NCBI GenBank assembly: GCA_963730605.1
Contig: CAVSSM010000001.1
Location: 673,987 to 737,986 of the forward strand
Length of the DNA stretch: 64,000 nucleotides
Direction of reading: 5' to 3'
Origin: an uncultured Chlamydiae bacterium
GTDB lineage: Bacteria > Chlamydiota > Chlamydiia > Chlamydiales > SM23-39
A program made the position numbers and the translations under genes. Under the pieces are notes generated by a model. It had not been told where the DNA came from, ran no database searches, and was given only the letters and a program-made list of their open reading frames with translations. Of the stretch, positions 9,037 through 53,502 are shown one piece after another (positions within the stretch are counted from its first letter, which is position 1; each line of letters starts with the position of its first letter).

Positions 9037-9798
9037 ATGTGTTCTCTCATTGCGAGCGCAACAAATCCTAATCTTGGGGCACTATCTTTAGCTAATGAAC
9101 ATTTGAATCGGGTCGTAGAAAAAATGGGCGCTTTAGGGCAATTTTCAGTGACTGAGTATGATCCGAATCCCATAAACATGCACAACAAAGGGATAAAAAA
9201 CCAGATGAGAATCGGTGAGAAAATGGCTGATGTTCTAAATGGAGGCAATACCGAATTTACTGTTCAATCAGCGCTTGGACTTATGGCCCATGAAGTTGCT
9301 CATAGAATATTAAAACACAATGAACAAACCATTGCATTTTTGCTTGAATCGCAAGGTATTCCTGTCAAATCGTTAGATGACCTGGTAGAAGTTTTATCAG
9401 GAACTCCTGAGACACAGTCAGCAAAACGTCTTTTCATAGATTACCACAATTGGGCATCAGGAGAGACTCCAGAAAGTGTAGAGAAGCTTATAAACTCAGT
9501 GAATCAAAAAATATCAGAATTTTATCGGAATCAAGAAAAGGAAGCGGATCTTCTTACAATGAGAGACTCCTATCTTGCACGAGGACTCAGAGACTATTTT
9601 GTAAGAATCATCGAAAATTGCGAAAAAAATCCTGAATTTCACTGCTCTGTCTCCTATGTGGATGATGAAAAACATCCATCGACAGTTAGCCGCATTCACT
9701 ATATGACTCGTGCGCTTTGTCAAGAGTATCCAGAAGAAAATAGTGATATTTGCCCCGATACAGACTCGCGATATGGAAGCTATACTGCGACCGCTTAG
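9037..9798 (+). CDS. M48-family zinc metalloprotease-like protein
   Basis: AHEVAH, QEKEAD and HPSTVSRI motifs. Confidence 0.75.
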   Translation: MCSLIASATNPNLGALSLANEHLNRVVEKMGALGQFSVTEYDPNPINMHNKGIKNQMRIGEKMADVLNGGNTEFTVQSALGLMAHEVAHRILKHNEQTIAFLLESQGIPVKSLDDLVEVLSGTPETQSAKRLFIDYHNWASGETPESVEKLINSVNQKISEFYRNQEKEADLLTMRDSYLARGLRDYFVRIIENCEKNPEFHCSVSYVDDEKHPSTVSRIHYMTRALCQEYPEENSDICPDTDSRYGSYTATA

Positions 9799-9944
9799 GT
9801 TGTGTGAATTTTGACAGCGGATTTTGCGTTCCAGTAGCATTGCGGAGATCGCCGCAAACTTCAGTATGTTAGCAAGATCGAGCAATGCGCTGGGGCGCAA
9901 AAGGCGCTCAACAAAATTCACTCAAACTGAGTGGGCGCGGTATA
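9781..9944. mobile_element. ~164-bp TA-flanked palindromic element (subfamily A)
   Basis: Ends tatactgcg...cgcggtata; arms gtgaattttg / caaaattcac; similar to revcomp of 19012-19176. Confidence 0.85.
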
Positions 9945-10088
9945 TTCAACTTGCCCAGTATTGGACTTATCCTACCGCTGATAAGCCAAGGTGGGCGGCT
10001 AAATTTTTAAACTAGACATAAATTTCGAGAGCTGATATAATAATGAATTAAAATAATATTATTTAACTTTATTATTATAGGATTTTCT

Positions 10089-10886
10089 ATGATGTCATCG
10101 ACGCCTGTTTCTGGTATGTTTTCTCAAGTCCAAGATACGCTACAATTCTATTGTAGCACCTCGATTGTTCAATCGTTTCTCAATTCGGATCAAAATAAAA
10201 AAATGAGAGAATTATGGGATAGTTTTGCTAGCAAACATAGCCAAATAAATGGCGGCGGGCCGTCTTTAGGCGGAAGCAATGCTCCTGATAGTTGCTCGAT
10301 GCATTTTGATTATCTTGCAATCTACAAAGATGTCTTTTTTTCGGCAGATGGCGTGAGCTGTGAAGGCGATTATTATGAGAAACTCCGATGCGAGTTAGTG
10401 GAAAAAAAGTCTTGGGGCAGTCACAACATATTGTCTACTTGCGACTGGGAAGCCGAGATTTGTTATAGTGAAAAACCAAAAGATAATCTGATATGCGTGA
10501 AGAATACGGTTAAATTCGATCTAGATGACTCTAAAACGCAAGGGATTCCCCAAGAAGCTCCAGAGGTAATAGCTAAAGAACTTGTACAAGATCCGAGAAG
10601 CGCTCTCTCTTCTCAAGCAACGTCGAACAAGATACCAAATACCCCTCCCTCCTCACCAACTACAACAACACCAGTAAGGACTCTAGCAGTAGGCGCTGGC
10701 GCTGCAAGCACGGCCTATTTTGCTTATAAAGCCTATAAAGAAATTCGCAGCATTTATGAAGGAAAAGAGCAGGCAAAGGAAACGCCAAACAAATCCAAGG
10801 AAAAAGCTTCCGGTTGGCGAGCTGTAGGGTATGCCGCGGCGGCGATTGGCTCGGGCGCATTTACCGTCTACGCAATCAAAATTTGA
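10089..10886 (+). CDS. hypothetical protein, Cys-rich with C-terminal hydrophobic segments (effector-like)
   Basis: 265 aa lower-GC ORF with RBS-like agga. Confidence 0.65.
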   Translation: MMSSTPVSGMFSQVQDTLQFYCSTSIVQSFLNSDQNKKMRELWDSFASKHSQINGGGPSLGGSNAPDSCSMHFDYLAIYKDVFFSADGVSCEGDYYEKLRCELVEKKSWGSHNILSTCDWEAEICYSEKPKDNLICVKNTVKFDLDDSKTQGIPQEAPEVIAKELVQDPRSALSSQATSNKIPNTPPSSPTTTTPVRTLAVGAGAASTAYFAYKAYKEIRSIYEGKEQAKETPNKSKEKASGWRAVGYAAAAIGSGAFTVYAIKI

Positions 10887-10895
10887 GAGGCCTAA

Positions 10896-11165
10896 TTATC
10901 GCCGTTTCGTTTTTTTTCCAGCGGCAATTTTGCTCATGTGCTTCATCACTCTTCTTTTGCCGCTGTGAACAAGCCTTTTCACGCCCGATTTCTTTTTGTG
11001 AAAGGCCCTTTTTACATTGTTTTCGAACTCATTCAATGTGTTCATCGCATTTTTTTTGATCGTATTTCCTTTTTTGGTCGTGAACAGCATCGCTGATACG
11101 GCCCCGATCGTGCTGCCGAGCATCGCGCCCAGCATAAAATTTCTTCCCGGATGTTTCTTTTTCAT
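10896..11165 (-). CDS. YtxH-like small basic protein
   Basis: FMLGAMLGSTIGAVSAMLFTTKKG pattern followed by basic helix. Confidence 0.65.
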   Translation of the reverse strand: MKKKHPGRNFMLGAMLGSTIGAVSAMLFTTKKGNTIKKNAMNTLNEFENNVKRAFHKKKSGVKRLVHSGKRRVMKHMSKIAAGKKTKRR

Positions 11166-11169
11166 ATTC

Positions 11170-11454
11170 TTATCTCCATTGTTTCCATAAGGTAACTCCC
11201 AGTGCCGCAAGCATCATGAGGTCGGCTAAATGGCCCTTTTTGGGGATGCCCTTCATGAGTTCCTCAAAAGCGGCGTTTTTTTCTCTTAAGTCGCTCTTTT
11301 TGAGAAACTCTCCCACTTTGGCCACGATTTTCCCGATCCTTTTGAAAAAGAGCTTCTTTTGCTTATGCGTTGCCCGCAAGAGATACAAAGCGCTGCCGCT
11401 AAGAAGGCCCCCAATCACGAAACCGAGAATAAGCTTGTCTAAATCATTTCCCAC
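11170..11454 (-). CDS. small membrane-anchored hypothetical protein
   Basis: N-terminal LILGFVIGGLL TM; GTG start, coupled to neighbours. Confidence 0.55.
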   Translation of the reverse strand: MGNDLDKLILGFVIGGLLSGSALYLLRATHKQKKLFFKRIGKIVAKVGEFLKKSDLREKNAAFEELMKGIPKKGHLADLMMLAALGVTLWKQWR

Positions 11455-11794
11455 GGCGCTTCACCGCATATTTAATTTTGTTGAAAAGGTCCAAGCTCGT
11501 GCCCACCCACTCTACGATTTCCGATACTGTCCCCGAAGAATCTCTTTGCCGTTTTCCTTTTGCAAGCGCTTTTAAAGGGTTGAATACAAGGTCTAAAGAG
11601 TCCGCTTTGGATTTGATGTCGGTGACGAGCGCATCGAGCTTTTTCATCAGCTCGACCGCTTCCATAGAGACCTTGTGGAAATCCTCTTTGGCTTTTTCGA
11701 GGGTCTTTTGGGTTCTCAATAGGAGGATGACCGAACAGGTCATGCCGGCAAGAAGGGCGAAGGCGATTAAAGCGACTGATATTTCGATAGTCAT
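11444..11794 (-). CDS. DUF948/YoxC-like membrane-anchored coiled-coil protein
   Basis: N-terminal TM followed by coiled coil; upstream of YtxH-like gene. Confidence 0.6.
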   Translation of the reverse strand: MTIEISVALIAFALLAGMTCSVILLLRTQKTLEKAKEDFHKVSMEAVELMKKLDALVTDIKSKADSLDLVFNPLKALAKGKRQRDSSGTVSEIVEWVGTSLDLFNKIKYAVKRRGK

Positions 11795-11896
11795 TTTTTA
11801 TTCACTTAATTTCTAACTTTATTATTATATAAATGACTTAATTTGTAAATTTTGTTAATCAAGTAGCTTGTTATAAATAACATCGTTTGGAAGATT

Positions 11897-13219
11897 TTAA
11901 GAGCTTAACTCTGTTTTTTGACGAGGCTGGATCTTGATTTTCTTGATCGACCGCTCGTTCGAGGAGAGGACTTCGAGGTCGAACTCGTCATGGGAGAGGC
12001 GCCAGCCTTTGGAGGGAATCGTCCCAGCGCAGTGGTAGACGTAGCCCCCGATCGTCTCATATTCGGGATTGGGAGGGATCTTGAGGCCGAGGCGCTCCTC
12101 GATGTCGTGGATCGTCATCTTGGCGTCGACGATCCAGCCGCCGCCCGGCACTTCCCAAAATTCGTGTTCTTCTCCGACATCGTACTCGTCTTCGATCTCT
12201 CCGACAAGCTCTTCCAAAATGTCTTCGATCGTCACGATCCCTTCCGTCCCGCCGTATTCATCGACGATGATCGCCATGTGGATCTGCTTATTGCGGAACT
12301 CCTGGAGGAGCTGGGTGATCTTCTTATTTTCGGGGGCGTACAAGACAGGTTTGGCGATGGTCTGGAGCGGTTCTTTGAGATCCTGGTTGGGGTTGACGTA
12401 GCATTTAAGCAGGTCTTTATAGAGAACGACGCCCAAGATCTGATCGAGAGACTCGCGGTAGATGGGGATGCGGCTATACCCTTCCGCCGCAAAGAGCGGG
12501 GCCGCTTCCTGGATCGTCGTATCGGCCGCGAGGGCATAGACATCGACGCGGGGGACCATGATCTCTTTCCCTACCCTTTCTTTGAAATTGATGAAGGAAG
12601 CGATCAGCCTTTGGTCAGTCGGGGCCAGGTGTTGTTGGAGATCCGATTCACTGATCATTTCGCGCAATTTCGCTTTGTCGGTGAGAAGGTCTTCTCCCTC
12701 AAGAGGGGCTTTCTTGAAGAGCGTCTGGTGTAATTGCAAAAGGAGCCCGACCAAAGGAAAAAGGAGTGTGAGGTAGATCGAGGCGAAGGGAGCTGCGAAT
12801 TTCAACATGGGACGGATCCAAGCATTGGCCATCGTCCGGGCCAAGAAGTCCGCAAGTAGCGACACGGCGATGATGATTGCTCCGATCGCGAGCAGTGGGA
12901 CCCAATCTCTTAAGCCAGAGATTTGGGAGATCATCGCCTTAAAATAGGAAATGCGTTCCACCAGAAAGAAAAAGGCGCACGTTGCATAAGCCAGTTGGAA
13001 GATGTGATTGGTCAATGATATCGCAAAATAGAGATTCTCCCATTCGTTTTTTGGGAAAATCGATTTGAGGATCGAGCGGAAAAAGAAAAAGGGACGGCGC
13101 GGGGCGCGGAAGATTTCCTTGGCCTTGAACTTGCCAAGGCGAATCAACGCAGAGGTGCAAATCGTCAAACATACAGTTCCAAACAAAAAAAACAGGGCAA
13201 GAATGAGGAGTTCGCTCAT
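11897..13219 (-). CDS. hemolysin/CorC-family CBS-domain membrane protein
   Basis: EIMVPRVD, YSRIPIY, IVDEYGGTEGIVTIEDILEELVGEIEDEYD. Confidence 0.93.
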   Translation of the reverse strand: MSELLILALFFLFGTVCLTICTSALIRLGKFKAKEIFRAPRRPFFFFRSILKSIFPKNEWENLYFAISLTNHIFQLAYATCAFFFLVERISYFKAMISQISGLRDWVPLLAIGAIIIAVSLLADFLARTMANAWIRPMLKFAAPFASIYLTLLFPLVGLLLQLHQTLFKKAPLEGEDLLTDKAKLREMISESDLQQHLAPTDQRLIASFINFKERVGKEIMVPRVDVYALAADTTIQEAAPLFAAEGYSRIPIYRESLDQILGVVLYKDLLKCYVNPNQDLKEPLQTIAKPVLYAPENKKITQLLQEFRNKQIHMAIIVDEYGGTEGIVTIEDILEELVGEIEDEYDVGEEHEFWEVPGGGWIVDAKMTIHDIEERLGLKIPPNPEYETIGGYVYHCAGTIPSKGWRLSHDEFDLEVLSSNERSIKKIKIQPRQKTELSS

Positions 13220-13800
13220 GGAGTGATTTTTAATTTAAGCTGTTTGAGATGATCCATACACTTTTTCTCCATTTTGCGCATCGATCGTTTCGCATTGGGC
13301 TCAATATCATCGTAGCCAATCAGGTGGAGGATGCCATGGATGAGATAGAGAAGAGTCTCTTCATAGGGGCGGGCGGGATCGAAGCGTTGCGCCGCAAGAG
13401 GGCAGATAAAAATATCCCCCAAATATACCGCGCGCGTCCAGTCTTGACAGGTTCTGACCGGCTGCGACTTTGCAGAATCGATCCTCGTCGTCGCCCTTCC
13501 CAATTCGGGAATGGTGCTCCTCCTGCGAATCAATTCTGCTTTGTCTCGCGCGGTCATAACATGCCAATCCTGACCGCGCGCAGTATGTACCGCGTCGACT
13601 GGAAAGGAGATGCAATCGGTCAGGCTTGGGTCGTTAAAGAATTCAACATGTAGCTGGCAGATTTTTTTCTCAGAGACAAAATAAACAGAGATTTCTTCGC
13701 ACTGAATGCGAAGAAATGAACACAACCCCCCTAATACTCTTCGAACGGAGCTTTTAGAAATGGGGAGAGCCTTTTGTCGATTGTATATATTGAAGTTCAC
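13216..13800 (-). CDS. ybeY: rRNA maturation endoribonuclease YbeY carrying a 54-aa element-derived insertion
   Basis: TDCISFP ... LGDIFIC ... HGILHLIGYDD motifs. Confidence 0.92.
   Translation of the reverse strand: MNFNIYNRQKALPISKSSVRRVLGGLCSFLRIQCEEISVYFVSEKKICQLHVEFFNDPSLTDCISFPVDAVHTARGQDWHVMTARDKAELIRRRSTIPELGRATTRIDSAKSQPVRTCQDWTRAVYLGDIFICPLAAQRFDPARPYEETLLYLIHGILHLIGYDDIEPNAKRSMRKMEKKCMDHLKQLKLKITP
13424..13587. mobile_element. ~164-bp palindromic element inserted in-frame in ybeY (subfamily B)
   Basis: ~60-bp imperfect terminal inverted arms; core similar to the kdsB copy. Confidence 0.88.
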
Positions 13801-13955
13801 GCTACAGGGGTTTTAGGCAGCCCGGTCACTTTTGTATTTTGACCGTCAACCCATCTTCCGAGTTTGCGAAGCATGTCGACCCTCTCGAAGCGCTTGAGAA
13901 CGTTCCGCTTTTTTCCGCCTTTATTGGTTTTGCCGTAGCTCGTGTGTCTGCTCAT
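13797..13955 (-). CDS. PVC-superphylum small basic signature protein (CT421.2-like)
   Basis: Manual translation MSRHTSYGKTNKGGKKRNVLKRFERVDMLRKLGRWVDGQNTKVTGLPKTPVA; stop overlaps ybeY GTG. Confidence 0.9.
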   Translation of the reverse strand: MSRHTSYGKTNKGGKKRNVLKRFERVDMLRKLGRWVDGQNTKVTGLPKTPVA

Positions 13956-13961
13956 AGTTTT

Positions 13962-14135
13962 TTATCCAATTTTTGGGATGAAACGGTTAGGGGTGGAGGC
14001 GCCATTCACGGCGTTTTCATGGGGTTTATAGCCCAATTCCAGCGCATCTCTCTTCGACCCGGTCTTTGGGGAAGGGGGACGAGGCCGGCGAGGCGAAACA
14101 TGTCTGTCTTTGCCTTGTTTGCTCATTCGTGTCAT
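13962..14135 (-). CDS. small basic chlamydial protein (CT421.1-like)
   Basis: Manual translation MTRMSKQ...FIPKIG (57 aa) with GGAG RBS; termini match my recollection of the chlamydial family; syntenic position. Confidence 0.75.
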   Translation of the reverse strand: MTRMSKQGKDRHVSPRRPRPPSPKTGSKRDALELGYKPHENAVNGASTPNRFIPKIG

Positions 14136-14218
14136 AGGAATCTCCAGTACAGGGCATTATTATGGACAATTTGGCAAATCCTTGCCAGTAACTTCCTAAG
14201 ATCCTGGATACAAGTATC

Positions 14219-14653
14219 TTAAGATCTTGATTCGAGAGACATCTTGGCTTGTTTATAGGCGTTGAAGCGTAAACCGGAAAGACTTTTTTTATTCGGCGCA
14301 GTGAGGTCTTCGAACTCATAGATGATTTTAAATCCGGAAAGAAGAAGCGGGGTGGGGCAGAGGTTAAAGGCGAAGTGGGCCTGGTTGACGTTTGATTTGG
14401 TCTGAGTAATGGCAATCCGCTCCTGGGTCGGATCAGAGCCGGCGCTGTGGGGCAAAAAGCTCGTTTCGGGGAATTTCCAAAGAAGCTCGTCTACAAAATG
14501 CAAGGCTTTATCATCGTCGACAAAGAATAGGATGGACTCTTTTTTGCCAAAGTGGGCGCGCGCGGTTTCGGCGATCCTTTTGAATTTAGCGGCAATCTCC
14601 GCGACCTGGAAAAAGACGACGCGGGTTAGGGATAAATCTTCATGAAAGGTCAT
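14219..14653 (-). CDS. holC: DNA polymerase III chi subunit
   Basis: VDELLWKFPETSFLPH motif. Confidence 0.8.
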   Translation of the reverse strand: MTFHEDLSLTRVVFFQVAEIAAKFKRIAETARAHFGKKESILFFVDDDKALHFVDELLWKFPETSFLPHSAGSDPTQERIAITQTKSNVNQAHFAFNLCPTPLLLSGFKIIYEFEDLTAPNKKSLSGLRFNAYKQAKMSLESRS

Positions 14654-15284
14654 CTTTGCCCTCCGAAGGGGTCTTTAGCGAATGGATGAGGCCGCAGGAG
14701 ACGAGGTATTTTACGGCCTCCTCATTGGTCATGTCGATCTTATACACGTCTTCTTCGGGAAGAAGGAAAAGAAAACCGGTGATCGGATGGGGGGCCGTTG
14801 GAGCGAACACCGAGACAAGGGGCGCTTTCACTGTATTCTTGATCTCTTCGGCCACTTCGCCGGCTTGGAAGCCGATGGAATAGGTCGGCCGATGGGGGAA
14901 TGGGAACATCACAGGTTGTTTGAAGGCTTTTTTCCCATCCAAGGAAAAGAGGGCGGCGATCACATCGCGGCTTATTTTATAAACGGTCTTGATCAAAGGG
15001 ATCCGCGATAAAATGGTACTGGTTCCAGAAATGATGTTTTTGATGATGAACCACCTGGCGACGACTCCCAGAAGAAAAATGAAAATCACAAGAAGGATGA
15101 GAGCCAGGATGCGGGAAATGAAAACGATCAACCCCTGGGGAAGATGGACCTTTGCCAAGATATGCGCTTCGATGAGATTCACGAAGGGAGAAGTAAAAAG
15201 CTCGACAAGGAAGAAGATCACCATGATCGTAAGAACAAGAGGGAGCAGGAGAGCAAGACCCGTAATGAGGTATTTTTTGATCAT
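14640..15284 (-). CDS. DUF502 membrane protein
   Basis: KKYLITGL..LLPL, RIPLIKTVY, PTAPHPITGFL. Confidence 0.85.
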   Translation of the reverse strand: MIKKYLITGLALLLPLVLTIMVIFFLVELFTSPFVNLIEAHILAKVHLPQGLIVFISRILALILLVIFIFLLGVVARWFIIKNIISGTSTILSRIPLIKTVYKISRDVIAALFSLDGKKAFKQPVMFPFPHRPTYSIGFQAGEVAEEIKNTVKAPLVSVFAPTAPHPITGFLFLLPEEDVYKIDMTNEEAVKYLVSCGLIHSLKTPSEGKDDLS

Positions 15285-15901: not shown

Positions 15902-15925
15902 CTCTTCATGATGGCGGCAGGGTTG

Positions 15926-16675
15926 TTATTTGGCAACCTTCGCGACGAACCGATAGGGAAGATCCACGCATTCTTCCGCGTAATCGATCCCGATGCGTGG
16001 AGTGGTTTGGAACTCTTTGATCTTGATTCCAGGCGCGATCCAAACCGCTTCCGATTCCGAATCGAGCGGGATCCCTGTGAGCCGAACGGTAATGCCGAGG
16101 GCAGCCGTCAAGGCTCCAGGGCCGCCTGTAAGCGTTGGGTCAAGCCGGGTTTTCTTTCGCCTTTGCATCATGATCTCGATGCCGTGGGTCGGCTGTATCG
16201 TCCGGACGAGGATCCCATGAGGGACGCCGGCATCTCCGGTGACGACGTTGAAAAGGGCGTGGATTCCATAGCAAAGATAGACGTAGGCGACGCCGCCTTG
16301 CCGGTACAGCACTTCCGTTCTAGGCGTCCTCCGCCCTCCATAGGCATGGCTCGCTTTGTCTTCCACTCCTGCGTAGCTTTCGGTCTCGGTGATGATCCCG
16401 CCGGTCAGATGTCCGTCGATGCGGGTAAAGAGACTGCAGCCAAGCAGGTTCTTCGCCGCTTCAACGACATCGGGATTCCGAAAGACAAGACGCTCTAACC
16501 CCGCCCTCCAAATAGATGACAAATGGCTTGCTGCGGCTTTGTCATATCGATCCTCTTCGCTCGCCTTGGCTTTAAGCAATGGCCTTCGCTCATACGGAAC
16601 GCTTCGCTTCGATCTGACTTTCACACCCCTTCCGACGATGCGTCGGTGGGGACCCCGTGCGCCTTGCTGAGCCAT
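15926..16675 (-). CDS. mpg: DNA-3-methyladenine glycosylase (MPG/AAG family); first ~59 codons lie in a palindromic element
   Basis: ITETESY, DKASHA, YVYLCYGIH, GPG, PRIGI; true start uncertain. Confidence 0.88.
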   Translation of the reverse strand: MAQQGARGPHRRIVGRGVKVRSKRSVPYERRPLLKAKASEEDRYDKAAASHLSSIWRAGLERLVFRNPDVVEAAKNLLGCSLFTRIDGHLTGGIITETESYAGVEDKASHAYGGRRTPRTEVLYRQGGVAYVYLCYGIHALFNVVTGDAGVPHGILVRTIQPTHGIEIMMQRRKKTRLDPTLTGGPGALTAALGITVRLTGIPLDSESEAVWIAPGIKIKEFQTTPRIGIDYAEECVDLPYRFVAKVAK

Positions 16676-16705
16676 TTGTTGCCACCTCTTTGAATGCCGG
16701 GGTTA
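16496..16705. mobile_element. ~210-bp TA-flanked palindromic element between rnr and mpg, with nested short hairpin at 16626-16656
   Basis: taaccccgccctccaaatagatgacaaatggct vs revcomp of right end taaccccggcattcaaagaggtggcaacaaatggct. Confidence 0.75.
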
Positions 16706-18847
16706 GTAACCGCGATCTTTCTTTTGGGCTGGGCGGGTGGGGGGAGGGGGGATAATGGACCATTCTGTTTGTTGGAGGGTATAGTCGATGCGATCCAAAC
16801 GGACGAATATGGTTTGGCCGACCGCGTAGCTTCTTCCGGACCTCGAGCCGCGGAGCGTCATCGCTTGAGGATTGAATTCGAAATAGTCGTTGCCGATTTG
16901 AGAGATGTGCAAGGAGGCTTCGAGATCGAAAAAGGAAACTTCGAAAAAGAGGGCAAACGGTTTGATGCGGGTGACTGTTGCCTGATAGGGGCGCGTCAAG
17001 TCTTCGGCGAAATAAGTTCCGGCAAGCCGGAGTTTTTTCAAAAGCTTGACCGAGCTTTCGGCCCTAAAGGAGACTCTCTCCTTTTCTGAGCATTTTAAGG
17101 CGATGGCGTCCAAATCGGCATCGTCTGGCAGTTCATCGCAAAGAAGCCGCTGGATGATCAGGTCGGTGTAGCGCCGGATGGGGCTCGTGAAATGGCAGTA
17201 ATGCTCGAGCGCCAAACCGTAATGGCCGATATTTTCTGGCGAATAGGCGGCAAGCCTCATGCTCCGGATGAAGCTGATCGAGAGTTGGGAGAGCAGGGGT
17301 GAGTCCTTCGCATCTTGGAAGAGTTTTTGGATGTCGCGGTGAGTGGGATCGGCAGGAAGCTTAAACCCTAGAGTTCTCGCAAATGCGTAAAAGTCTTTAA
17401 ACGATTCGGCAGACGGCTCTTCATGGACCCGGTAGATAAGAGTTTTGCCTTGGCGCTGGAGATGGGATGCCGCAATCTCATTGGCCTTGAGCATGAACTC
17501 TTCAATCATCTGATGGGTGATATCGTATTCGATCCTCTCGATCCGAAGAGGGATGCCATCTTTGTCGACAATTAGGACGTTATCAGGCATGGAAAAATCG
17601 ATGCTGCCGCGCTCGAACCTTTTCCGCTTCAAAATATGGCAGAGCTCCACCATCAGCTCCAGCAGGCTGGAATGGGGCGATTTTTCCTTTTTCTCGAGGA
17701 CGGCCATGGCTTCTTTGTAAGTGAAACGCTTGCGGCTTTTGATCACGGTGCGTCGGATCTCATAGCGGATCATATTGCCGTCCCCATCGAACTCGGCGAG
17801 AACCGATTGGGCGAGCCTCTTCACATTGGCTTTCAGGCTGCAGAGCTCGTTGGAGAGCTCTTCGGGCAGCATCGGGACGCACTGACCGGGAAAATAGGTC
17901 GAATTGCATCTCTCAAAGCTTTCCGTATCGAGGTGGCTTCCCGGAAGAACGTAGTGGGCGACATCGGCGATATGGACGCCGAGATGATAATGTCCCTCGC
18001 TATCTCGGGTAAGCGATATGGCGTCGTCGTAATCGCGGGCTGTATCGGGATCGATCGTAACGCATTCGAATCCGGTCAGATCGAGCCGGTTTTTACACTC
18101 TTTGACCGAAACCTTGGCCCCGTAGGCTCTTGCCTCCTCGATCGCTTCCACGGAAAAGCCGTCCGGCAGATCGAACTCGGCAATGGCCGCTTCGGTGTCG
18201 ATCGAAGGATCGGAGATGTTGCCGATCATGCGGGTCAGCGTTGCCTCCACAAGGTCCGATTCACCGCCCCAAGAAACGATCTTACAAATGACCCGGTCTC
18301 CCTCTTCCAACGTTATCCCTTTGCTGGCCTTAAGCAAAATAAGTTTATCTGATCCCAATAAAGGAGAAAACGCCTTGTAGCCCCGCCCCGATTTGCCTAC
18401 GACCGTTCCCGCCAAAGAGGTGCGGCTCCTTTTCAAGATGGCGATGACGGTCCCTTCGGGCCCTTTTACGGTGACAATGGGTTCGATTTCGATTTCGACC
18501 TCGTCCCCGTCGACCGCATCGTTCAACCTCTGTTTCGGGATAAAGACATCGGGACCCGCGGCGTTCTTGACGAAGCCGAACCCTTTCGGATGGACGCTGA
18601 TCGTCCCGGTCACCAAGGCCGCTCCGTTCGGCGCCGTATATTTATTGTTTTGGAGCACGAGGGCTTTGTCCTCGATCAATTGTCCCAAAACGACCTTCAA
18701 TCGGTCTCGATGGATGGGAGCGACTGCAAGCTGTTCGACGAGTTCTTCGTAAGTGGCCGGTTTGTAGCGTCTTCCTTGGATGAACTGGAGGATGGTCTTT
18801 GCGAGGTTTTGGGAGAGCTTCTCCCCCTTCTTTCTTCTGGATTTCAT
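16703..18847 (-). CDS. rnr: ribonuclease R
   Basis: HPKGFGFV CSD, TIDPDTARDYDDAIS, HFTSPIRRYTDL, C-terminal S1. Confidence 0.96.
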   Translation of the reverse strand: MKSRRKKGEKLSQNLAKTILQFIQGRRYKPATYEELVEQLAVAPIHRDRLKVVLGQLIEDKALVLQNNKYTAPNGAALVTGTISVHPKGFGFVKNAAGPDVFIPKQRLNDAVDGDEVEIEIEPIVTVKGPEGTVIAILKRSRTSLAGTVVGKSGRGYKAFSPLLGSDKLILLKASKGITLEEGDRVICKIVSWGGESDLVEATLTRMIGNISDPSIDTEAAIAEFDLPDGFSVEAIEEARAYGAKVSVKECKNRLDLTGFECVTIDPDTARDYDDAISLTRDSEGHYHLGVHIADVAHYVLPGSHLDTESFERCNSTYFPGQCVPMLPEELSNELCSLKANVKRLAQSVLAEFDGDGNMIRYEIRRTVIKSRKRFTYKEAMAVLEKKEKSPHSSLLELMVELCHILKRKRFERGSIDFSMPDNVLIVDKDGIPLRIERIEYDITHQMIEEFMLKANEIAASHLQRQGKTLIYRVHEEPSAESFKDFYAFARTLGFKLPADPTHRDIQKLFQDAKDSPLLSQLSISFIRSMRLAAYSPENIGHYGLALEHYCHFTSPIRRYTDLIIQRLLCDELPDDADLDAIALKCSEKERVSFRAESSVKLLKKLRLAGTYFAEDLTRPYQATVTRIKPFALFFEVSFFDLEASLHISQIGNDYFEFNPQAMTLRGSRSGRSYAVGQTIFVRLDRIDYTLQQTEWSIIPPPPTRPAQKKDRGY

Positions 18848-18850
18848 TAT

Positions 18851-19013
18851 TAACCCGCTGTGCAAATATGAGACATTTCTTCAGGACGTAGATTGTCCAT
18901 CTCTGCGTTGCCCTGCTTCGACAACCCACTTCGGGGTTGCCTGCATCGGGCGCCTTGATCTGAACAATCTCCGTTTACCTGCATAAATTGTCTCCTATTT
19001 GCGTAGCGGGTTA
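18851..19013. mobile_element. 163-bp TA-flanked palindromic element (subfamily C)
   Basis: taacccgctgtgcaaatatgagacattt vs revcomp of end taacccgctacgcaaataggagacaattt. Confidence 0.85.
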
Positions 19014-19176
19014 TACGGCACCCGGTCAGCTTTGGTGAATTTTGGTGAGCATCTTTTGCGCCCCAGCGCATTGCTCGCACTCGCAAACTTTTTAAGTTTC
19101 CTTCGTGTCTCCGCAACGCTACTGGGACTCAAAATCTGCTGCCAAAATTCACCAAATCTAAATCGCGCACCGTATA
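19012..19176. mobile_element. 165-bp TA-flanked palindromic element (subfamily A)
   Basis: tatacgg...ccgtata ends; shares 25 identical bp (cgagcaatgcgctggggcgcaaaag) with 9781-9944 in opposite orientation. Confidence 0.85.
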
Positions 19177-19293
19177 GTAGCATCGATCATAGGGAAAGGA
19201 GGGAATCTGAGCAAGGGAAGAAATTCCACGACAAATTCCCTGAGTCTCATGAGTAATTGAAATTTAAATTATGCCACTTTGTTGGCAAACACA

Positions 19294-22140: not shown

Positions 22141-22147
22141 GCTTTCC

Positions 22148-22999: not shown

Positions 23000-23938
23000 T
23001 TATCCGAAACTCGCATTATTGAGAATTTTGAGTAAGGGGTCGTGGATATGGCCGTTTGTAGCGAGGATCGGATTTTTTCCATGAGCTAAAAAGGGGGTTT
23101 TGTCCCAATGGGTGACCCTTCCTCCCGCCTCGGCAACGAGAAGCTGTCCTGCGGCACAGTCCCAAGGACTCAAGCTCACTTCGAAAAAACCTTCGAAATG
23201 GCCAGCCGCCGTATAGGCGAGATCCAGGGCCGCCGAGCCGAGCCGGCGAATCGGGACGCCGAGCTTGAGGACGTCGATGAAATGATCGATGCAATGGAAA
23301 GGGTTGTCAGCAAGATTATAGGGGAATCCTGTCGCTAATATCGATTCTTCGAGCCTTAAAACAGGCGAGACGCGGATGGGCTCGCCGTTCAAAAAGGCAC
23401 CGTTGCCCAATTCTGCGACAAAAAGCTCATGATGGAGAGGCTGATAGACGACCCCGGTTTGGATCTGCCCGTTTTTCTCAAGCGCGATGCTGACTGAGAA
23501 GATGGGGATGCCGTGGGCGAAATTGACCGTGCCGTCTAGGGGATCGATGATCCAGAGGAGGTCATCTTCTCCCCAAAGACGATGCGTCTTTGGGGGCCCC
23601 TCCTCTTTTTCCTCTTCTTCTCCCCAAAGACGATGCGTCTTTGGGGGCCCCTCCTCTTTTTCCTCTTCTTCTCCCCAAAGACCATGCGTCTTTGGGGGCC
23701 CCGGTCCCGTAGCGCCGCTCTCTTCGGCAAGAAAGCGGGAGCCGGGGTCTATTTGCTTGAGCGCGCCGATGATGCTTTTTTCGGCTTTGATGTCATAGTC
23801 GGTGACGAGATTGTGCCTCCCTTCTTTCGAAGAGATGGTAAAACTCGTCCTGAACCCTTTGCGGAGAATAACGCCTGCCTCCAAAGCGGCGTCGATCGCT
23901 GCAAGTGTCAGGCGCGAGAATGTTTCTTTTTTAACCAA
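23000..23938 (-). CDS. suhB: inositol monophosphatase family protein with repeat insertion
   Basis: LAEESG, WIIDPLDGTVNF, GSAALDL, PWDCAAG; probable TTG start. Confidence 0.9.
   Translation of the reverse strand: MVKKETFSRLTLAAIDAALEAGVILRKGFRTSFTISSKEGRHNLVTDYDIKAEKSIIGALKQIDPGSRFLAEESGATGPGPPKTHGLWGEEEEKEEGPPKTHRLWGEEEEKEEGPPKTHRLWGEDDLLWIIDPLDGTVNFAHGIPIFSVSIALEKNGQIQTGVVYQPLHHELFVAELGNGAFLNGEPIRVSPVLRLEESILATGFPYNLADNPFHCIDHFIDVLKLGVPIRRLGSAALDLAYTAAGHFEGFFEVSLSPWDCAAGQLLVAEAGGRVTHWDKTPFLAHGKNPILATNGHIHDPLLKILNNASFG
23569..23702. repeat. 51-bp tandem repeat x3 built from the REP-like hairpin
   Basis: ccccaaagacgatgcgtctttgggggcccc at 23571, 23622 and 23673 (third copy with one mismatch). 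Confidence 0.95.
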
Positions 23939-39621: not shown

Positions 39622-40495
39622 CTACCTGCGCTCCGTCAGGTTTTGTGAATTTTGGCTGGCTACGCCTTTGAGGAACCGATCTTTCTCGTCAGCCTTCCCT
39701 ATTCGGGAATGGTCTTCCTCATTGGGATCAATTTTGCTTTGGCTCGCAGAGCCAAAATTCACAAAACCTTCCTGCACACGGTTCAAGTATTCTTCAAGTT
39801 TTACGAGGGCGGGGGGTGTGTCGACACTGGGCGCTTTTATCGGCCAAGGAGACTTTGATCCGAGAGTTCCCAATTCAATCCAAAGGGTCCGAGTGTTCGT
39901 TTTCTGGAGGTCGGTCGTTTTCAAGGAGGGGAGATGCTCCAAAAAAGCCCTGCGGTAGCAATAAATGCCATATGGGCAAAGGCAAAGAGAGGGCGTTTAG
40001 AGAAATGGCAGGGAATGGGCGCGCGGCTGAAGTAGAGGGCGTAGCCATTGACGTCAAAAACGCATCAACGACATCAGGAGAGAGGAAATCCTCCCTGTTC
40101 CGTATCGGGGGGCGGCGGTCGCTAGACTTGCGTCTTTGGAGGAGCGGAGATCCCCGGCGATCTTTACGATCGTCTCAGGCTTCGTGCAGGGGTGATCTCC
40201 TTGGAGGACCATGACATAGGAGGCCTTCTGGAGTACAGCATGGCGGCTCAAGGCCTCAATGACCCTCGCGGTTCCGTCGCGGGGGGCCGTCGAGGTCCAG
40301 CACCTCCCCGCCTATTTGCCTTACATGCTCCGCAATCCTTTCGCATCAGTGGCGACGTAGAGGCTGCTTAAGGATGGACAACGGCTGGCGCATTCAAACG
40401 TTCTCTGGAGAACCGTCTTTCCTTGGGCTTTTGCAGTAGTTTCCCGGGAAAACGGGAGCTGTTGATCGGGCTGGGATGACGCAGGCAAGTGACAT
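39622..40495 (-). pseudogene. kdsB: KdsB, frameshifted mirror copy (element copy at ~39621-39785)
   Basis: Mirror of 52615-53502 with many indels. Confidence 0.75.
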
Positions 40496-43860: not shown

Positions 43861-43889
43861 TTGAAAATTTATGATTCTTCTGTTACAAT
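43861..43889 (+). promoter_or_regulatory. sigma66/sigma70-type promoter
   Basis: TTGAAA-17 bp-TACAAT upstream of AGGAG RBS and GTG at 43923. Confidence 0.55.
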
Positions 43890-43922
43890 GCCTCCATCTT
43901 AGGAATTGTAACAGGAGTAAGC

Positions 43923-46557: not shown

Positions 46558-47184
46558 CACATGCAAGATACCCTTCCGCCTCTCCCCAAGGAAAAGAAAG
46601 GAGGGAACGACCCTCGGAGGGCAAGGTGGGGCGTTTCGGGCATTGGGGCGCTGACAGAAACGACTTTTGCACCTTGGGGCAAGCCCGCCATTTTTTGAGT
46701 AAGGCGGGAGAGCTCCTCTTCGCCCATGCAAGTGCTGTAAAGGTAGACGCAGCTCGCCCCTGAAAAATCGGCCTCCGCCATATCGGCTTTAATGAATGTG
46801 ACACGCTTAAAACCAAAAAGGGCCGAGGTTCCTCGAGAAAGATGTAAAAACAGGGGAACTTTCTCAACGCCGATGGCGCGGCACCCGACAAATTGAGAGA
46901 TCCTAACAGACCCTTTTCCCCTACCTGATCCGAGCTCGAGATAGCTGTCATTGGAGGAGAGCGAGCAGAATGAGGCGATCCGATGCAAGGAGGAGGGAGG
47001 GGTCTCTCCGTAGGTGGTCCCTTTTTTTTCGGCAGATTCGGTAGGGGTTGAAAAAGAGGGTCGCAAATCCAAGGGCCAAATCGGAGAGGGCAAAGCGCCA
47101 GCTCTTCCGGGTAATAAAGGCGGACCGTTTCTCTCGGAATCCAAAGTTCGCCTTTTTGATCTTGATCAATTCACCAATTGACAT
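46558..47184 (-). pseudogene. class I SAM-dependent methyltransferase, mirror copy cut at the centre
   Basis: ELGSGRG motif; indels. Confidence 0.7.
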
Positions 47185-48112: not shown

Positions 48113-48327
48113 AGTCCGCAAAATAAAGACTTTTCTTTTATCGACAAGCATTTGATGCAATAAATTTAGATTGAATCGTTTGCTTTTGAAAATATTGGAC
48201 AAGTTACTGCAAGCCTTGCTTGAAAACAGCAGGTCTCGCAGGTTTGTTAGAGTGGGAGCAGCTAGCCGCCGATGGTTTTTTCCCGGAGGGACGGGAGGCG
48301 GTACACTCCCTACTACTCATCTACTGG

Positions 48328-48369
48328 TAGTGGGTAAGGGATTGGATTCCGCCAATCCCTTACCCACTA
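48328..48369. other. perfect 18-bp-stem hairpin downstream of the coiled-coil gene
   Basis: tagtgggtaagggattgg-attccg-ccaatcccttacccacta; garbled in the left arm (~44748-44790). Confidence 0.6.
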
Positions 48370-48425
48370 GATGGGAATGGGCGCCTGTAGCTTTGACAAG
48401 CACAGTGGCAAATGGAGATGAAACG

Positions 48426-49194
48426 TCAACGCATGCTGTGCACATATGGGAGGGTGGTAACTAGGCCTATAAGAAGAAAACCAGCTACCACCGTTAAAAT
48501 TACCACAGTAGAGGCCTTTTCAAGGCTAGCCTCGCGTTCTTGGACAGCAGCTTCGAGTTTTTCAAACAGAGCCTTCCAGTTTTGTGAGATAGCCTCGCAT
48601 TTTTGGACAGCAGCGACAGCAACCTTGAGTGTTTGAAACATACTCTGACTTTTTTGAAACAGAGCCTTCCAGTTTTGTGAGATAGCCTGGCATTCTTGGA
48701 CAGCAGCCTCGAGTGTTTGAAACGTACTCTCACTTTCTTGAAACAGAGCCTTGCAGGCTTGTAATGGATTCTGGGATTCTTTGAGCGCAGCCAGAGCCAG
48801 GCATTCTCGAAGCCTAGCCATGACATTTTCTTTTGCTGGCTCAACCGGAGTTGGGGAAGGCTTGGTCTTCTCCGGCGTTGAAGCGGGTGTTGGAGCTATC
48901 GGTGATATAGACGGCGGGATTGGAGGTGTCGCACTACCTATCAATTCCCCGTCAACCTTATGCAAGGGAGATGGAATTAGGGACGGCGTTGGCGATGAAG
49001 TTGATGAGGACGTAGGCATTCGTGAGGGCGATGGTATCTTTGTAGAAAGAGCGTTGACTCTACTGCTCAAACTCTTCGAATTTTGCTCGTCTTCTAGAGA
49101 TCCGCTTTTGTCCTGGGTGGTTAATTCTCGTATTCCTATGGACAGAGGACTGAAATCGATTATCGTAATTTTTAGCTGACGTTATGCTTGCCAC
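48426..49194 (-). pseudogene. mirror copy of 43923-44690 with a frameshift near 49100-49125
   Basis: 769 nt vs 768 nt in the left arm. Confidence 0.65.
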
Positions 49195-49544
49195 GCTTAC
49201 TCCTGTTACAATTCCTAAGATGGAGGCATTGTAACAGAAGAATCATAAATTTTCAACTCCTCTTTGTTCAATATCTTTGTTATTCAAAGACAAAGGGTTA
49301 TGCCAATAGACTCCCTATCACACAACATTTTAGGTGATAACCTCACTATCTGAGGGCCTAGTGGTCTTTAACAGTTGATCGTCTACCAGACAAAACACGG
49401 TTATGATAAGATCGTCGATCGATATACAGTTCTCACTATTTCTTGGTTAAGAAGCCAAATAGTTTTTTGACTGTATGTTATTTTTTCAAGTGGCTAGGCC
49501 GCTCGAAAAGTCGCGCACGGCGCAATCAACTATTTGAGTATTTC

Positions 49545-50993
49545 ATGTCTACGCTTGCCAGCATGACCCGCTACCCTGAAGGAAGCATCCGTGAACTATG
49601 GGCGATTTCATCTCCTTTGATGATCTCCACCCTCGCGATGCTTTTCATGATCTTCACGGACAGGATCTTTCTGGCTCATTATTCGATTGAAGCCTTGAAC
49701 GCGTCCGTGAACGCGGGGACTCTCGCTTGGGCGTTTATTTCCGGGATCGGGATGATCACTGCGATGTCGGAAGTGTTTGTCGCCCAATATAATGGAGCAA
49801 AACTTTTCAAGCGGATCGGGACCACTGTCTGGCAAATGATCTGGTTTTCTGGTTTTTCCCTTCTCATCTTTATTCCTTTAGCGATCTGGGGCGTTCCTAT
49901 TTTTTTCAATGGAAATCCAAATGCAGAGATGGAAATTGTCTATTTTCGATATCTCATGCTCTTCGCGCCGGGCTATGCCTTGGTGACCGCATTTGCCGGA
50001 TTCTTCATCGGCCGGGGAAAAACAAAAGTGATGATTTGGCTTGCCGTGATTGCCAACGGAATCAATATTTTGCTGGACTGGGTTCTCATCTTCGGCATCG
50101 AAGGATGGGTGCCGGAAATGGGAATAAAGGGTGCCGCGATCGCCACCTGCTGCGGGTATCTTCTGGAGTCGGCTGTCCTCCTCTATCTATTCTTACGAAA
50201 AGAGAACCGGGAATCTTTCGGGACCTGGAACTGGCGCTTCAATGGCCAAGAGATGGCCAAGTGCTTAAGAGTGGGCGTGCCTCAGGGGCTCTTTTGCACG
50301 CTCGAAGTGATCGGATGGGCTGTTTTCTATGGGCTCATGACCTATTTGAGCGATAAACATATTACTATTTCGAGCATCTGCCAAAGCTTTGCCATCTTAC
50401 TTTCTTTTTTCTTTGACGGGCTCTCTAGAGGCGCGGCTGCAATCGCCGGGAATTTCATCGGCTCGAGACGGCATGAGCTCGTAAATAACGTTCTAAAATC
50501 AGGATTGATCCTCCTCCTTTTCTTTCTTCTCGCGACATCGGCCTTCCTCGTTTTCGATCCGGTCGATACCGCAGGATTTTTGTTTTTCGCTGAAATAGAA
50601 GCGGGAAGGATCACATCGGAGGTCGATCCTGCCTTAGTTCATTCGTTGAAGGTTTGCATGACCCTTGCTTTCCTCTATATCTTTTTCGATGGACTCCGTT
50701 GGCTTTTGAGCGGCCTTTTGACCGCCGCGGGCGATACTCTCTTTCTCCTTTTCTTCGGATCGTTTTCAGTGTGGATCTTTCTTCTCATCCCGGTTTACTT
50801 CATCGTAGTGAAAAACGCTCTCCCCGTAGAATACGCTTGGGGGTTGAAAGTGGCCTATGCGACCCTTCTTTTCTTGGTCTATCTGGCAAGGTTCAAAAAT
50901 GGAGCCTGGAAAAAGATCGACCTGGTGCATCAGGGTCCTAAGGAGAGCGTGATGGGCGGGGCGTCGGTGATCTCAGATTCTCCAAAAAACTGA
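49545..50993 (+). CDS. MATE-family efflux transporter
   Basis: Multi-TM pattern, NILLDWVLIFG..PEMGIKGAAIAT. Confidence 0.9.
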   Translation: MSTLASMTRYPEGSIRELWAISSPLMISTLAMLFMIFTDRIFLAHYSIEALNASVNAGTLAWAFISGIGMITAMSEVFVAQYNGAKLFKRIGTTVWQMIWFSGFSLLIFIPLAIWGVPIFFNGNPNAEMEIVYFRYLMLFAPGYALVTAFAGFFIGRGKTKVMIWLAVIANGINILLDWVLIFGIEGWVPEMGIKGAAIATCCGYLLESAVLLYLFLRKENRESFGTWNWRFNGQEMAKCLRVGVPQGLFCTLEVIGWAVFYGLMTYLSDKHITISSICQSFAILLSFFFDGLSRGAAAIAGNFIGSRRHELVNNVLKSGLILLLFFLLATSAFLVFDPVDTAGFLFFAEIEAGRITSEVDPALVHSLKVCMTLAFLYIFFDGLRWLLSGLLTAAGDTLFLLFFGSFSVWIFLLIPVYFIVVKNALPVEYAWGLKVAYATLLFLVYLARFKNGAWKKIDLVHQGPKESVMGGASVISDSPKN

Positions 50994-52498
50994 ATGGGGC
51001 CGGGATAGCGGTAGTCGTCTTGGATCTCCCACTTTTTCCTTGCGGCTGCGAACGTCAAAAAAGGAGAGCCTTTGAGATCGACGACCGTTTTTTGAATCAC
51101 CGGCTTTTCTTTGCCCAATCTCCTTTCCATGTGCATCAGGCGGACGATCGGAACCATTTTCAGCTTCCAGTGCATGGGATGCTCTTTCAGATGTTGGACC
51201 CCGCAAATGCTACCGGTTATCCCATCTCGCACCGCGAGAGCCGAGAGACGGCCTAAGCAAGTACAATAATTCGCATCGAAATTCGTTGGAAAACAGGACC
51301 TGCCTTCGTATCCGAAAAAGTGCTCCTGGGCTGCGAATTTTCCTTTGTATTTCGACCGCCCTTTCAGCTCTTTTTTCACAAGCGCTATAAGGATGATCTG
51401 AGTATCGATTTGCGAGAGCTGGACATTGCCGTGGGGGTCGCGGTCAAGGAGTAGCTGTTTTTGGATTCTTTCATCCAAGGCTTCAAAGATTGCTTTTTCC
51501 GCACTCCCTAGAAGCTCCTGCGAGTTGTTTCCGACGCCTCGGTTCAATGACGCAATCAAGGACTGCATCTCCGGGATGAACTCGATCAGCCCTTCGGGGA
51601 TCAGGATGACGCCATATTCTTTGCCCGCTTCGTACCTTTTGCAAATCAGATCGGCGATTTCCAAAACGATTGCGCCAAGCCCTTTCCTCTCCTCTCCGAC
51701 GAGCGCGAGATTGGGATGGGTGGATATTGCGCACTCTAATGTGATGTGAGAGGCCGACCTGCCCATCAATTTGATGAAGTGGTAGTATTTTTTGCCCGAG
51801 AGGGCGTCTTTCGCGATGTTGCCAATGAGCTCGGAATAAGTTTTGCACGCCGAATCGAACCCGAATGGGATTTCGATGTCTTTGCTTCTCAAATCCCCGT
51901 CGATCGTTTTCGGCACCCCGATCACCCGGGTCTTGCACCCCTTTTGCATGAAATATTCCGCGAGCAGGGCCGCGTTCGTATTCGAATCGTCGCCGCCGAT
52001 AATGACCAGCCCATCCAAATCGATTTTCTTGACGGAACTCAATGCTGCTGCGAGCTGCTCCCCCGTCTCGATTTTCGCCCGTCCCGTTCCGATAAGATCG
52101 AAACCGCCCAGATTCATGAAGGCGGCGATCTCTTTTTCTCCGATGTCACGCTTCAGGTTGCCCACAACCCCCGCGGGCCCATTCAAAAAACCGAAGAGTT
52201 GCGAGAGCGGATCGATCTCTTTGATTCCATGAAATAAGCCTGCAAGGACGTTATGGCCTCCAGGGGCTTGTCCCCCGGAAAAAAGTGCGCCGATTTTAAG
52301 AGGCCGCCTTGCCCCCATGCCTTTTTCCAAAACGAAGGGATAGGCGTCGAACGTTTTTGGGAAGAGATTTCGGAGCGCCTCATCCCCCTTTTTGCCATCT
52401 TTCGATTCTCTTAAAACAACCTCGTTCAAATTCTGAAGGATCTCAGGCGTGATGGGCTTGTAAGAGAGTCGTTTCTTTTGGAGCAAGCTCAGTTCCAT
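50930..52498 (-). CDS. pfp: diphosphate--fructose-6-phosphate 1-phosphotransferase
   Basis: SGGQAPGGHN, GGDDSNT, PKTIDGD, MGRSASH. Confidence 0.93.
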   Translation of the reverse strand: MELSLLQKKRLSYKPITPEILQNLNEVVLRESKDGKKGDEALRNLFPKTFDAYPFVLEKGMGARRPLKIGALFSGGQAPGGHNVLAGLFHGIKEIDPLSQLFGFLNGPAGVVGNLKRDIGEKEIAAFMNLGGFDLIGTGRAKIETGEQLAAALSSVKKIDLDGLVIIGGDDSNTNAALLAEYFMQKGCKTRVIGVPKTIDGDLRSKDIEIPFGFDSACKTYSELIGNIAKDALSGKKYYHFIKLMGRSASHITLECAISTHPNLALVGEERKGLGAIVLEIADLICKRYEAGKEYGVILIPEGLIEFIPEMQSLIASLNRGVGNNSQELLGSAEKAIFEALDERIQKQLLLDRDPHGNVQLSQIDTQIILIALVKKELKGRSKYKGKFAAQEHFFGYEGRSCFPTNFDANYCTCLGRLSALAVRDGITGSICGVQHLKEHPMHWKLKMVPIVRLMHMERRLGKEKPVIQKTVVDLKGSPFLTFAAARKKWEIQDDYRYPGPIQFFGESEITDAPPITLSLGP

Positions 52499-52614
52499 GC
52501 GCTCGATTTTCCATGCCCGCAAGATTGCCCGCAAGCAAAAAGCCAAGGCCTGGGCTGTTGCCCGATAAAGCAATGGGGCGTATGATACAAACATTGTTTG
52601 TGTAGACCGCCAGT

Positions 52615-53502
52615 ATGTCACTTGCCTGCGTCATCCCAGCCCGATACAACAGCTCCCGTTTTCCCGGGAAACTGCTTGCAAAAGCCCAAGGAAAGACGGT
52701 TCTCCAGAGAACGTTTGAATGCGCCAGCCGTTGTCCATCCTTAAGCAGCCTCTACGTCGCCACTGATGACGAAAGGATTGCGGAGCATGTGAGGCAAATA
52801 GGCGGGGAGGTACTATGGACCTCGACGGCCCCCCGCGACGGAACCGCGAGGGTCATTGAGGCCTTGAGCCGCCATGCTGTACTCCAGAAGGCCTCCTATG
52901 TCATGGTCCTCCAAGGAGATCACCCCTGCACGAAGCCTGAGACGATCGTAAAGATCGCCGAGGATCTCCGCTCCTCCAAAGACGCAAGTCTAGCGACCGC
53001 CGCCGCCCCGATACGGAACAGGGAGGATTTCCTCTCTCCTGATGTCGTTAAGTGCGTTTTTGACGTCAATGGCTACGCCCTCTATTTCAGCCGCGCGCCC
53101 ATTCCCTGCCATTTCTCTAAACGCCCTCTCTTTGCCTTTGCCCATATCGGCATTTATTGCTACCGCAGGGCTTTTTTGGAGCGTCTGGCCTCCTTGAAAA
53201 CGACCGACCTTCAGGAAAACGAAGATTTGGAACAGCTCAAGGTGCTTGAATTGGGATACCGGATCAAAGTCTCCTTGGCCGATGAAAAAACGCCCAGTGT
53301 CGACACACCGTCTGACCTCGTAAAACTTGAAGAATACTTGAACCGTGTGCAGGAAGGTTTTGTGAATTTTGGCTCTGCGAGCCAAAGCAAAATTGATCCG
53401 AATGAGGAAGACCATTCCCGAATAGGGAAGGCTGACGAGGAGGGTCGATTTTGCAAAGGCGTAGCCAGCCAAAATTCACAAAACCTGACGGAGCGCGGTT
53501 GA
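52615..53502 (+). CDS. kdsB: CMP-Kdo synthetase with element-derived 53-aa C-terminal tail
   Basis: IPARYNSSRFPGK, ALYFSRAPIP, EDLEQLKVLE, SVDTPSDL. Confidence 0.93.
   Translation: MSLACVIPARYNSSRFPGKLLAKAQGKTVLQRTFECASRCPSLSSLYVATDDERIAEHVRQIGGEVLWTSTAPRDGTARVIEALSRHAVLQKASYVMVLQGDHPCTKPETIVKIAEDLRSSKDASLATAAAPIRNREDFLSPDVVKCVFDVNGYALYFSRAPIPCHFSKRPLFAFAHIGIYCYRRAFLERLASLKTTDLQENEDLEQLKVLELGYRIKVSLADEKTPSVDTPSDLVKLEEYLNRVQEGFVNFGSASQSKIDPNEEDHSRIGKADEEGRFCKGVASQNSQNLTERG
53339..53502. mobile_element. ~164-bp palindromic element at the kdsB/pyrG junction
   Basis: aaccgtgtgcaggaaggttttgtgaattttggct vs revcomp of end aaccgcgctccgtcaggttttgtgaattttggct. Confidence 0.88.

Follow-up and report, generated by a model that had tools for sequence, protein, structure and literature searches.

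Palindromic elements with IS630-type ends and a shared hairpin core in a Chlamydiales genome: probable mobile elements, some resident in frame within genes

How did long palindromes come to lie in and beside the housekeeping genes of a chlamydial genome, and why would some of them be read as part of a protein? The question is raised by a stretch of 64,000 nucleotides (the window) from an uncultured Chlamydiae bacterium of the order Chlamydiales (assembly GCA_963730605.1, contig CAVSSM010000001.1, positions 673,987 to 737,986), where an earlier reading of the letters (the original prediction) had marked six palindromic elements. All six are present with the coordinates, lengths, terminal arms and TA-like flanks then given. 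With a probability of about 85%, we consider the six copies to be non-autonomous miniature transposable elements with inverted repeats (MITEs) that combine ends of the IS630 type of insertion sequence (IS) with a hairpin core of non-IS origin; IS630 transposases working in trans likely moved them by cut-and-paste to TA dinucleotides, and the copies found in frame inside genes likely persist as selection removes the rest.

The first line of evidence comes from sites that lack the element. The genome from which the window was taken (the host genome: 2.22 Mb in 12 contigs, 83% complete) was compared with that of a congeneric bacterium, G003, with 1.13 of about 1.7 Mb covered and flanks about 89% identical. 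The G003 flanks are collinear at 115 of 403 loci, and at 82 of these 115 the element is absent; by type, 28 of 34 TATAC-type (type-I) and 9 of 10 type-II loci are empty, and in the reverse direction the host genome lacks the element at 10 of the 14 G003 loci that can be compared. Exactly 2 nt are found at 20 of the 33 tightly bounded sites, and these are TA in 13 cases. The TAACCC-type copies reach one base further than first described, so that TA lies outside them, and they show TA at four of five two-base sites. No target preference beyond TA was seen. Other subfamilies have duplications of 5, 4, 3 or 2 bp, as judged by eye. Within the window, the 18851 element had been listed as separate from the copy at 19012-19176, which is in fact nested in its right end; at this site G003 is shorter by a net 330 bp. 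At the 16495 site G003 holds a sister copy, which has two 75-nt modules and lacks the short module.

The second line of evidence is the ends themselves. No transposase lies in the window, as had been noted, but the genome has 29 DDE_3 matches, 14 of which are one intact 352-aa IS630 with TATAC ends; the left end of this IS is identical (21/21 nt) to that of the F5-type element, a sister subfamily. The ends of the 9781 family match a 1175-bp IS630 of a relative, G023, over 28 nt at one end and 32 nt at the other, and a similar IS630 in another relative, G007; both encode a helix-turn-helix and a DDE_3 domain. Because the ends match IS630 elements and the empty sites point to a 2-bp, mostly TA, duplication, we assign the elements to the IS630-type MITEs, and the non-autonomous, TA-duplicating, IS630-linked character first proposed for them holds; they have no capacity to encode a transposase. 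The element interiors were unmatched in the 18 long repeats tested and the ends alone match, hence the elements would not be MITEs of the deletion-derivative kind. Partners of other subfamilies are also visible. Of the clusters with a 5-bp duplication, the largest has 18 terminal bases in common with an IS982-family element of the host genome. A five-copy element, which we take to be IS5-like, matches the ends of GAGCC-type clusters at 15-16 of 18 positions (null 11-14). Two clusters bear a weaker likeness to an element that is presumably IS1634-like. For the GGG-ended elements no IS was found at 13 loci around such ends, and a search for ISAzo13 in five genomes was empty, but its control also gave no signal.

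In the mechanism that we propose, IS630 transposases would excise the elements in trans and paste them into TA dinucleotides; both the mobilisation in trans and the choice of transposase are read from end likeness. Could the palindromes instead spread without a DDE transposase, by an RNA-templated or recombination-based route, their IS-like ends being incidental? Nested modules of 48 and 75 nt and short modules do come and go without a clear duplication, and for some end types no partner was found. However, end sequence and duplication length covary and match the IS families of the genome (TA accompanies IS630 ends, 5 bp the IS982-type ends with their 18-nt match, and 2 bp the IS5-like ends), and we regard spread without a DDE transposase as very improbable.

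The interior of the elements has a history of its own. As the original prediction had it, the copies are mosaic: one core profile matches the kdsB, ybeY and mpg copies, and the arms of the kdsB copy resemble those of the 9781 and 19012 elements. This core of about 105 bp is found under TATAC, CTAACCC and GGG-type ends. Between 21 TATAC-ended and 6 GGG-ended elements the arms are 31% and the cores 73% identical, the latter about the same as within the TATAC group (75%); two clusters of the host genome with different ends and duplications have about 100 nt in common at roughly 90%. A core tree, weakly resolved and matched by shuffles as low in 23-28 of 500 cases, needs three to four changes of end type, and a single change was found in 0 of 200 bootstraps. 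Cores may change ends by recombination or by gap-repair capture among the many hairpins of the genome. The folds are strong throughout: three window copies folded as RNA gave z values of -10.3 to -10.6, a fold that none of 200 shuffles equalled, and representatives of 21 clusters folded as DNA gave -5.7 to -13.2.

Pairs in the core alone are 95% intact in 28 elements, and 20 of 31 pairs are changed on both sides; none of 500 shuffles reaches the covariation of the core pairs, and controls with slid pairing are 19-43% paired. The conservation is inflated, since the elements were gathered by core similarity. We speculate, tentatively, that these MITEs consist of two separately evolving parts, IS ends that set transposase and target, and a few structured cores that are conserved by compensatory change across the order, hop between IS630, IS982, IS5-like and other ends and outlive single transposases; such a core might serve some function itself, and through its open frame it would be a recurrent source of 54-residue inserts. 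A related possibility, to which we give only limited credence, is that the hairpin core itself is selected as a structured RNA or single-stranded DNA element that serves mobility or the host's RNA processing or termination and takes up any IS ends at hand. The covariation, the spread over five families (42 of 400 genomes) and the repeated end-type changes agree with this. On the other hand, the structure was derived from the same core-selected alignment that inflates its conservation, self-conversion of a hairpin can change both sides of a pair in the absence of selection, there are several unrelated cores and Rfam gave no match. A selected core supplements the MITE mechanism rather than replacing it.

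The window copies belong to a much larger population. In an all-against-all comparison of the host genome, 370 repeat loci fell into one linked set, beside which there were small related sets, and the 403 loci examined yielded 242 elements with detectable arms in 47 clusters. Families here are these clusters and not groups defined by fixed end motifs, and 34 loci stand outside the clusters. The arm scan was restricted to repeat loci because it is too noisy alone: run de novo on 300 kb, it returned 84 loci in the real and 21 in the shuffled sequence. After removal of 11 loci that exceed 700 bp or lie in a fold-back arm, 371 of 382 loci were counted, which bears out the expectation of further copies genome-wide, and with gene positions from a purpose-made hexamer gene caller 286 of them are intergenic, 47 internal to genes, 23 at 3' ends and 15 at 5' ends. 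The 47 internal loci are partly protein repeats, and the type-II set consists partly of 5-bp-duplicating IS982-type elements; those totals were kept out of the frame test. Full TATAC-ended elements number 98, of which 72 are intergenic, although 69% of the TA sites of the genome are coding. The window elements belong to several subfamilies, and the notion of a single family that remodels proteins was not borne out. The basal element is 160-175 bp long with arms of about 28 bp, and many elements contain nested modules, which measure 48-51, 74-75 or about 46 nt. Recent copies are 95-100% identical: the 9781 element has an identical copy at C1:491471 and others at 99%, and the 18851 element has six more at 97-99%.

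How then do some elements come to lie inside genes? The clearest case is ybeY, where the insertion falls at the TA of a Tyr codon; the YbeY of G003 has 140 aa and an empty site, and the two genes differ by 0.065 nonsynonymous (dN) and 0.467 synonymous (dS) substitutions per site. The site is a loop of variable length among relatives, for which a tblastn search returned three loci. An AlphaFold model places 136 residues at a predicted local distance difference test (pLDDT) score of 90 or more and the insert, mostly below 50, between two strands; the YbeY fold is thus predicted to be kept, with the insert in a loop. In G002 (L005) a different palindromic insert adds 49 aa at the same TA as in the host genome, and in G017 (L017) an independent one adds about 108 aa elsewhere in the gene. 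Of the coding overlaps listed in the original prediction, the one at ybeY alone is internal to its gene. At kdsB the element replaces the tail of the protein by 53 residues, and its terminal stop overlaps the pyrG start; the G003 site is empty with kdsB again overlapping pyrG (dN 0.039, dS 0.356). At mpg the overlap is 5', and the start codon appears to lie inside the element, because none is present from the end of the element up to the conserved part. The 9781 element gives an unnamed open reading frame (ORF, 9037-9798) its final codons and stop. Beyond the window, in-frame elements or modules occur in genes for an E1 dehydrogenase, E2 acyltransferase, RecD2, UppP, DnaX, a sulfatase, NAD kinase, inositol monophosphatase and glycogen phosphorylase. 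In-frame insertion into conserved genes, the residence predicted by analogy with Rickettsia palindromic elements (RPEs), is seen against G003 in ybeY, the E1 dehydrogenase, the sulfatase and others, and 11 database proteins contain the insert peptide. The longer proteins may be made and be functional. Among side observations, the locus L251:141-2732, which we take to be a secretion-system secretin gene, has an in-frame element near its N-terminus and is otherwise 94% identical to G003, and a genome of another family (G177; L290, L296, L304) has GGG-ended elements with the same core inside long ORFs.

Does the system perhaps aim at coding sequence, in frame, in order to remodel proteins? All six TATAC-ended elements with the ybeY core touch genes, and the ybeY insertions of G002 and G017 could be read as repeated choice of one gene. 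But the overall depletion from coding DNA is strong, there is no preference beyond TA, the subfamilies use different frames and relatives in any case differ in the length of the loop that forms the ybeY site; we consider such targeting very improbable. Of the TATAC-ended elements, 8 of the 39 with a read-through frame hold internal positions and none of the other 59 does, and 69% of TA sites lie in coding sequence; this argues for random insertion into TA followed by selection. The same filter separates the 9781 family (0 of 20 internal) from the ybeY-core group (4 of 6). At the loci inside called G003 genes, 10 of 21 have an open frame across the element in the host genome, the net length of each of the ten being a multiple of three. 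We read in-frame residence as the outcome of a filter on survival rather than of targeting. Selection would purge disruptive copies and leave in-frame ones in genes; since the 162 bp added by a TATAC-type copy are divisible by three, stop-free subfamilies can survive in loops and gene ends, and the 9781 family, which mostly cannot be read through, would stay between genes.

Several results weigh against the reading of the elements as IS630-mobilised MITEs filtered by selection. A clean 2-bp gap is missing at 13 of the 33 tight sites, and of the 20 two-base sites 7 hold other bases than TA, which is partly expected at a dS of about 0.33. An IS with exactly the 9781-family ends was not found in the host genome (83% complete), and both IS630 partners from relatives have split frames, likely a programmed frameshift. 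The TAACCC-type ends of the 16496 and 18851 elements have no partner among the 16 IS compared, the best matches being at the null level. The other 11 of the 21 loci that lie in called G003 genes lack an open frame in the host genome, 8 of these 11 lying 20 or fewer codons from a gene end, and disrupted genes may count as intergenic because the gene calls come from the hexamer caller. Finally, the dN/dS ratios of the genes that carry elements are ordinary, which speaks for the reading (0.07-0.27, against a genome median of 0.146 over 753 pairs), but they span both lineages and the time before insertion.

The quality of the assembly has also to be considered. The contig end, from about 29165 to 64000 (34.9 kb), is one inverted duplication with 96.9% identity, many indels and a centre near 46558, probably a fold-back assembly artefact; fold-backs of like kind, probably long-read chimeras, occur on contigs C5, C8 and C10. 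The genes of this stretch occur twice, with intact frames in the arm that contains kdsB-pyrG (52.6-55.1 kb) and a frameshifted mirror arm, where the frame of the kdsB element is open too. The 39622-39785 copy was left uncounted because it lies inside the probable artefact. These features are what one would expect if the elements were products of a noisy long-read assembly, yet copies stand at unrelated sites on many contigs and in other genomes, and short-read contigs, from runs that may share their source with the window, cross junctions without differences (one ybeY junction is crossed unchanged); an artefact as the origin of the elements is hardly credible. Four DNA runs gave no joint that skips a whole element, at a cover too low and patchy to carry weight.

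Table 1. Positions of the palindromic elements and affected genes in the window (MITE as interpreted in the text; a full stop marks no assigned strand)
Feature	Position	Strand	Remarks
TATAC-ended MITE, 9781 family	9781..9944	.	164 bp counting both TAs
TATAC-ended MITE inside ybeY	13424..13587	-	in frame, +54 codons; with shared core
CTAACCC-ended element	16495..16706	.	shared core and short extra hairpin module; overlaps rnr stop and mpg 5' end
TTAACCC-ended element upstream of rnr	18850..19177	.	19012 element nested in right end
TATAC-ended MITE akin to 9781 family	19012..19176	.	inserted at TA in end of 18851 element
Decayed TATAC-type MITE at kdsB-pyrG overlap	53339..53502	+	
Seventh copy	39622..39785	-	mirror of kdsB copy in noisy fold-back arm
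Composite TATAC-type cluster locus, intergenic	3990..4264	.	overlooked in the original prediction
Locus with GAGGGTG-type-end cluster, intergenic	8589..8946	.	
Three tandem short-hairpin-module units	23563..23702	.	in frame, +44 codons, inositol-monophosphatase-family gene
ybeY	13216..13800	-	194 aa; TIGR00043, PF02130; sole ybeY match in the host genome
kdsB	52615..53502	+	295 aa; homology ends near residue 245
mpg, 3-methyladenine glycosylase	15926..16675	-	TIGR00567 spans residues 67-245

It is useful to compare these elements with described systems. RUP of Streptococcus pneumoniae is a 107-bp element, closed in all six frames, with ends like those of IS630-Spn1 (PMC2229807). The likeness lies in the short non-coding form, the TA termini, the IS630-like ends and a mobilisation in trans inferred from end likeness; unlike RUP, the chlamydial elements measure about 165 bp, form many subfamilies, have open frames in some genes and hold cores in common with elements of other ends. 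RPEs are likewise 100-170-bp whole-length hairpins of an intracellular bacterium, in several families and partly in frame in housekeeping genes (PMC2229807, PMC10969869, PMC3733652). They are a textbook case of selfish DNA lengthening proteins, yet the reviews consulted name no transposase. The review of 2007 gives their duplication as unknown and their TA ends as variable (PMC2229807). In the present elements duplication and IS partners are visible; they are set apart from RPEs by the host, which the names of YbeY homologues place in Chlamydiales, and, as far as tested, by sequence, two insert peptides matching no Pfam family. MITECca01 of Cardinium, derived from IS982, also forms a swarm beside its parental IS in a host-restricted bacterium, and one subfamily here is IS982-ended too; however, MITECca01 has one parent IS and a deletion series, with no in-frame residence in the text examined (PMC9769881), whereas here at least four IS families and non-IS cores are involved. 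ERIC/IRU and Correia/NEMIS are TA-flanked hairpin MITEs with in-frame fusions, Correia with or without an internal segment, but each has a single end type, and no core common to transposase families is described in the portion seen (PMC2229807). REP/REPIN are tagged palindromes of 20-40 bp tied to the RAYT tyrosine transposase; the full elements here are far longer and duplicate their target.

The proposed mechanism is that of RUP with IS630-Spn1 and the protein effect that of RPE, both known from the literature (PMC2229807, PMC10969869, PMC3184786, PMC3733652, PMC9769881, PMC9997750, PMC9723776); what is new is the end-independent core. In the literature searched we found no description of MITEs or palindromic repeats of Chlamydiota, although ISfinder, subscription journals or supplements could hold one; the MITE reviews checked do not mention chlamydiae, and the Rhabdochlamydia genome paper mentions neither MITEs nor palindromes. 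No described repeat family was matched either: Rfam at the gathering threshold had no match in the window, Pfam no family in two insert peptides, and NCBIfam no repeat match in YbeY or KdsB. With further copies and empty orthologous sites also found, the three checks set by the original prediction all favour it, within the databases searched. For an RPE-like element, empty sites, candidate transposases and a duplication of defined length are here at hand, which makes the route from transposition to protein insert testable in E. coli, and a core under unrelated ends bears on the origin of MITEs that are not deleted from their IS. In practical terms, the inserts account for odd extensions in chlamydial gene annotations.

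As to distribution, 9 of the 41 genomes searched contain a match to the 9781 copy, and 42 of 400 genomes, from five families of the order, contain one to the kdsB copy, with two candidates scored per genome in the latter search. A metagenome scan with the core pattern found 18 loci, mostly TATAC-ended, none of which could be placed outside chlamydiae. Plasmid collections (three queries) and phage collections (one query) gave no match.

Some minor observations remain. The short hairpin module occurs alone and in tandem (4119-4219 and 23563-23702), with similar ones in NAD kinase and S9 peptidase genes. Nested hairpin modules of 74-75 and 48-51 nt lie inside cores without clear duplication (C1:495635-495708 and about 69 loci), one of them adding a net 72 bp with the gene staying in frame. 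Between 19294 and 20651 three similar stretches of about 200 nt run across two unnamed ORFs, without NCBIfam match. The IS load of the host genome is high, with three IS630 types and IS982; its other IS are presumably members of IS3, ISAs1, IS1634, ISAzo13 and IS5, and a three-copy repeat at the start of C4 is, we assume, reverse-transcriptase-like. Tandem units of about 85-90 bp adjoin a tRNA-like sequence at C2:272982-273252, and contigs C10 and C11 contain large arrays of 2-3-kb Gly/Thr/Asn-rich repeats that look adhesin-like.

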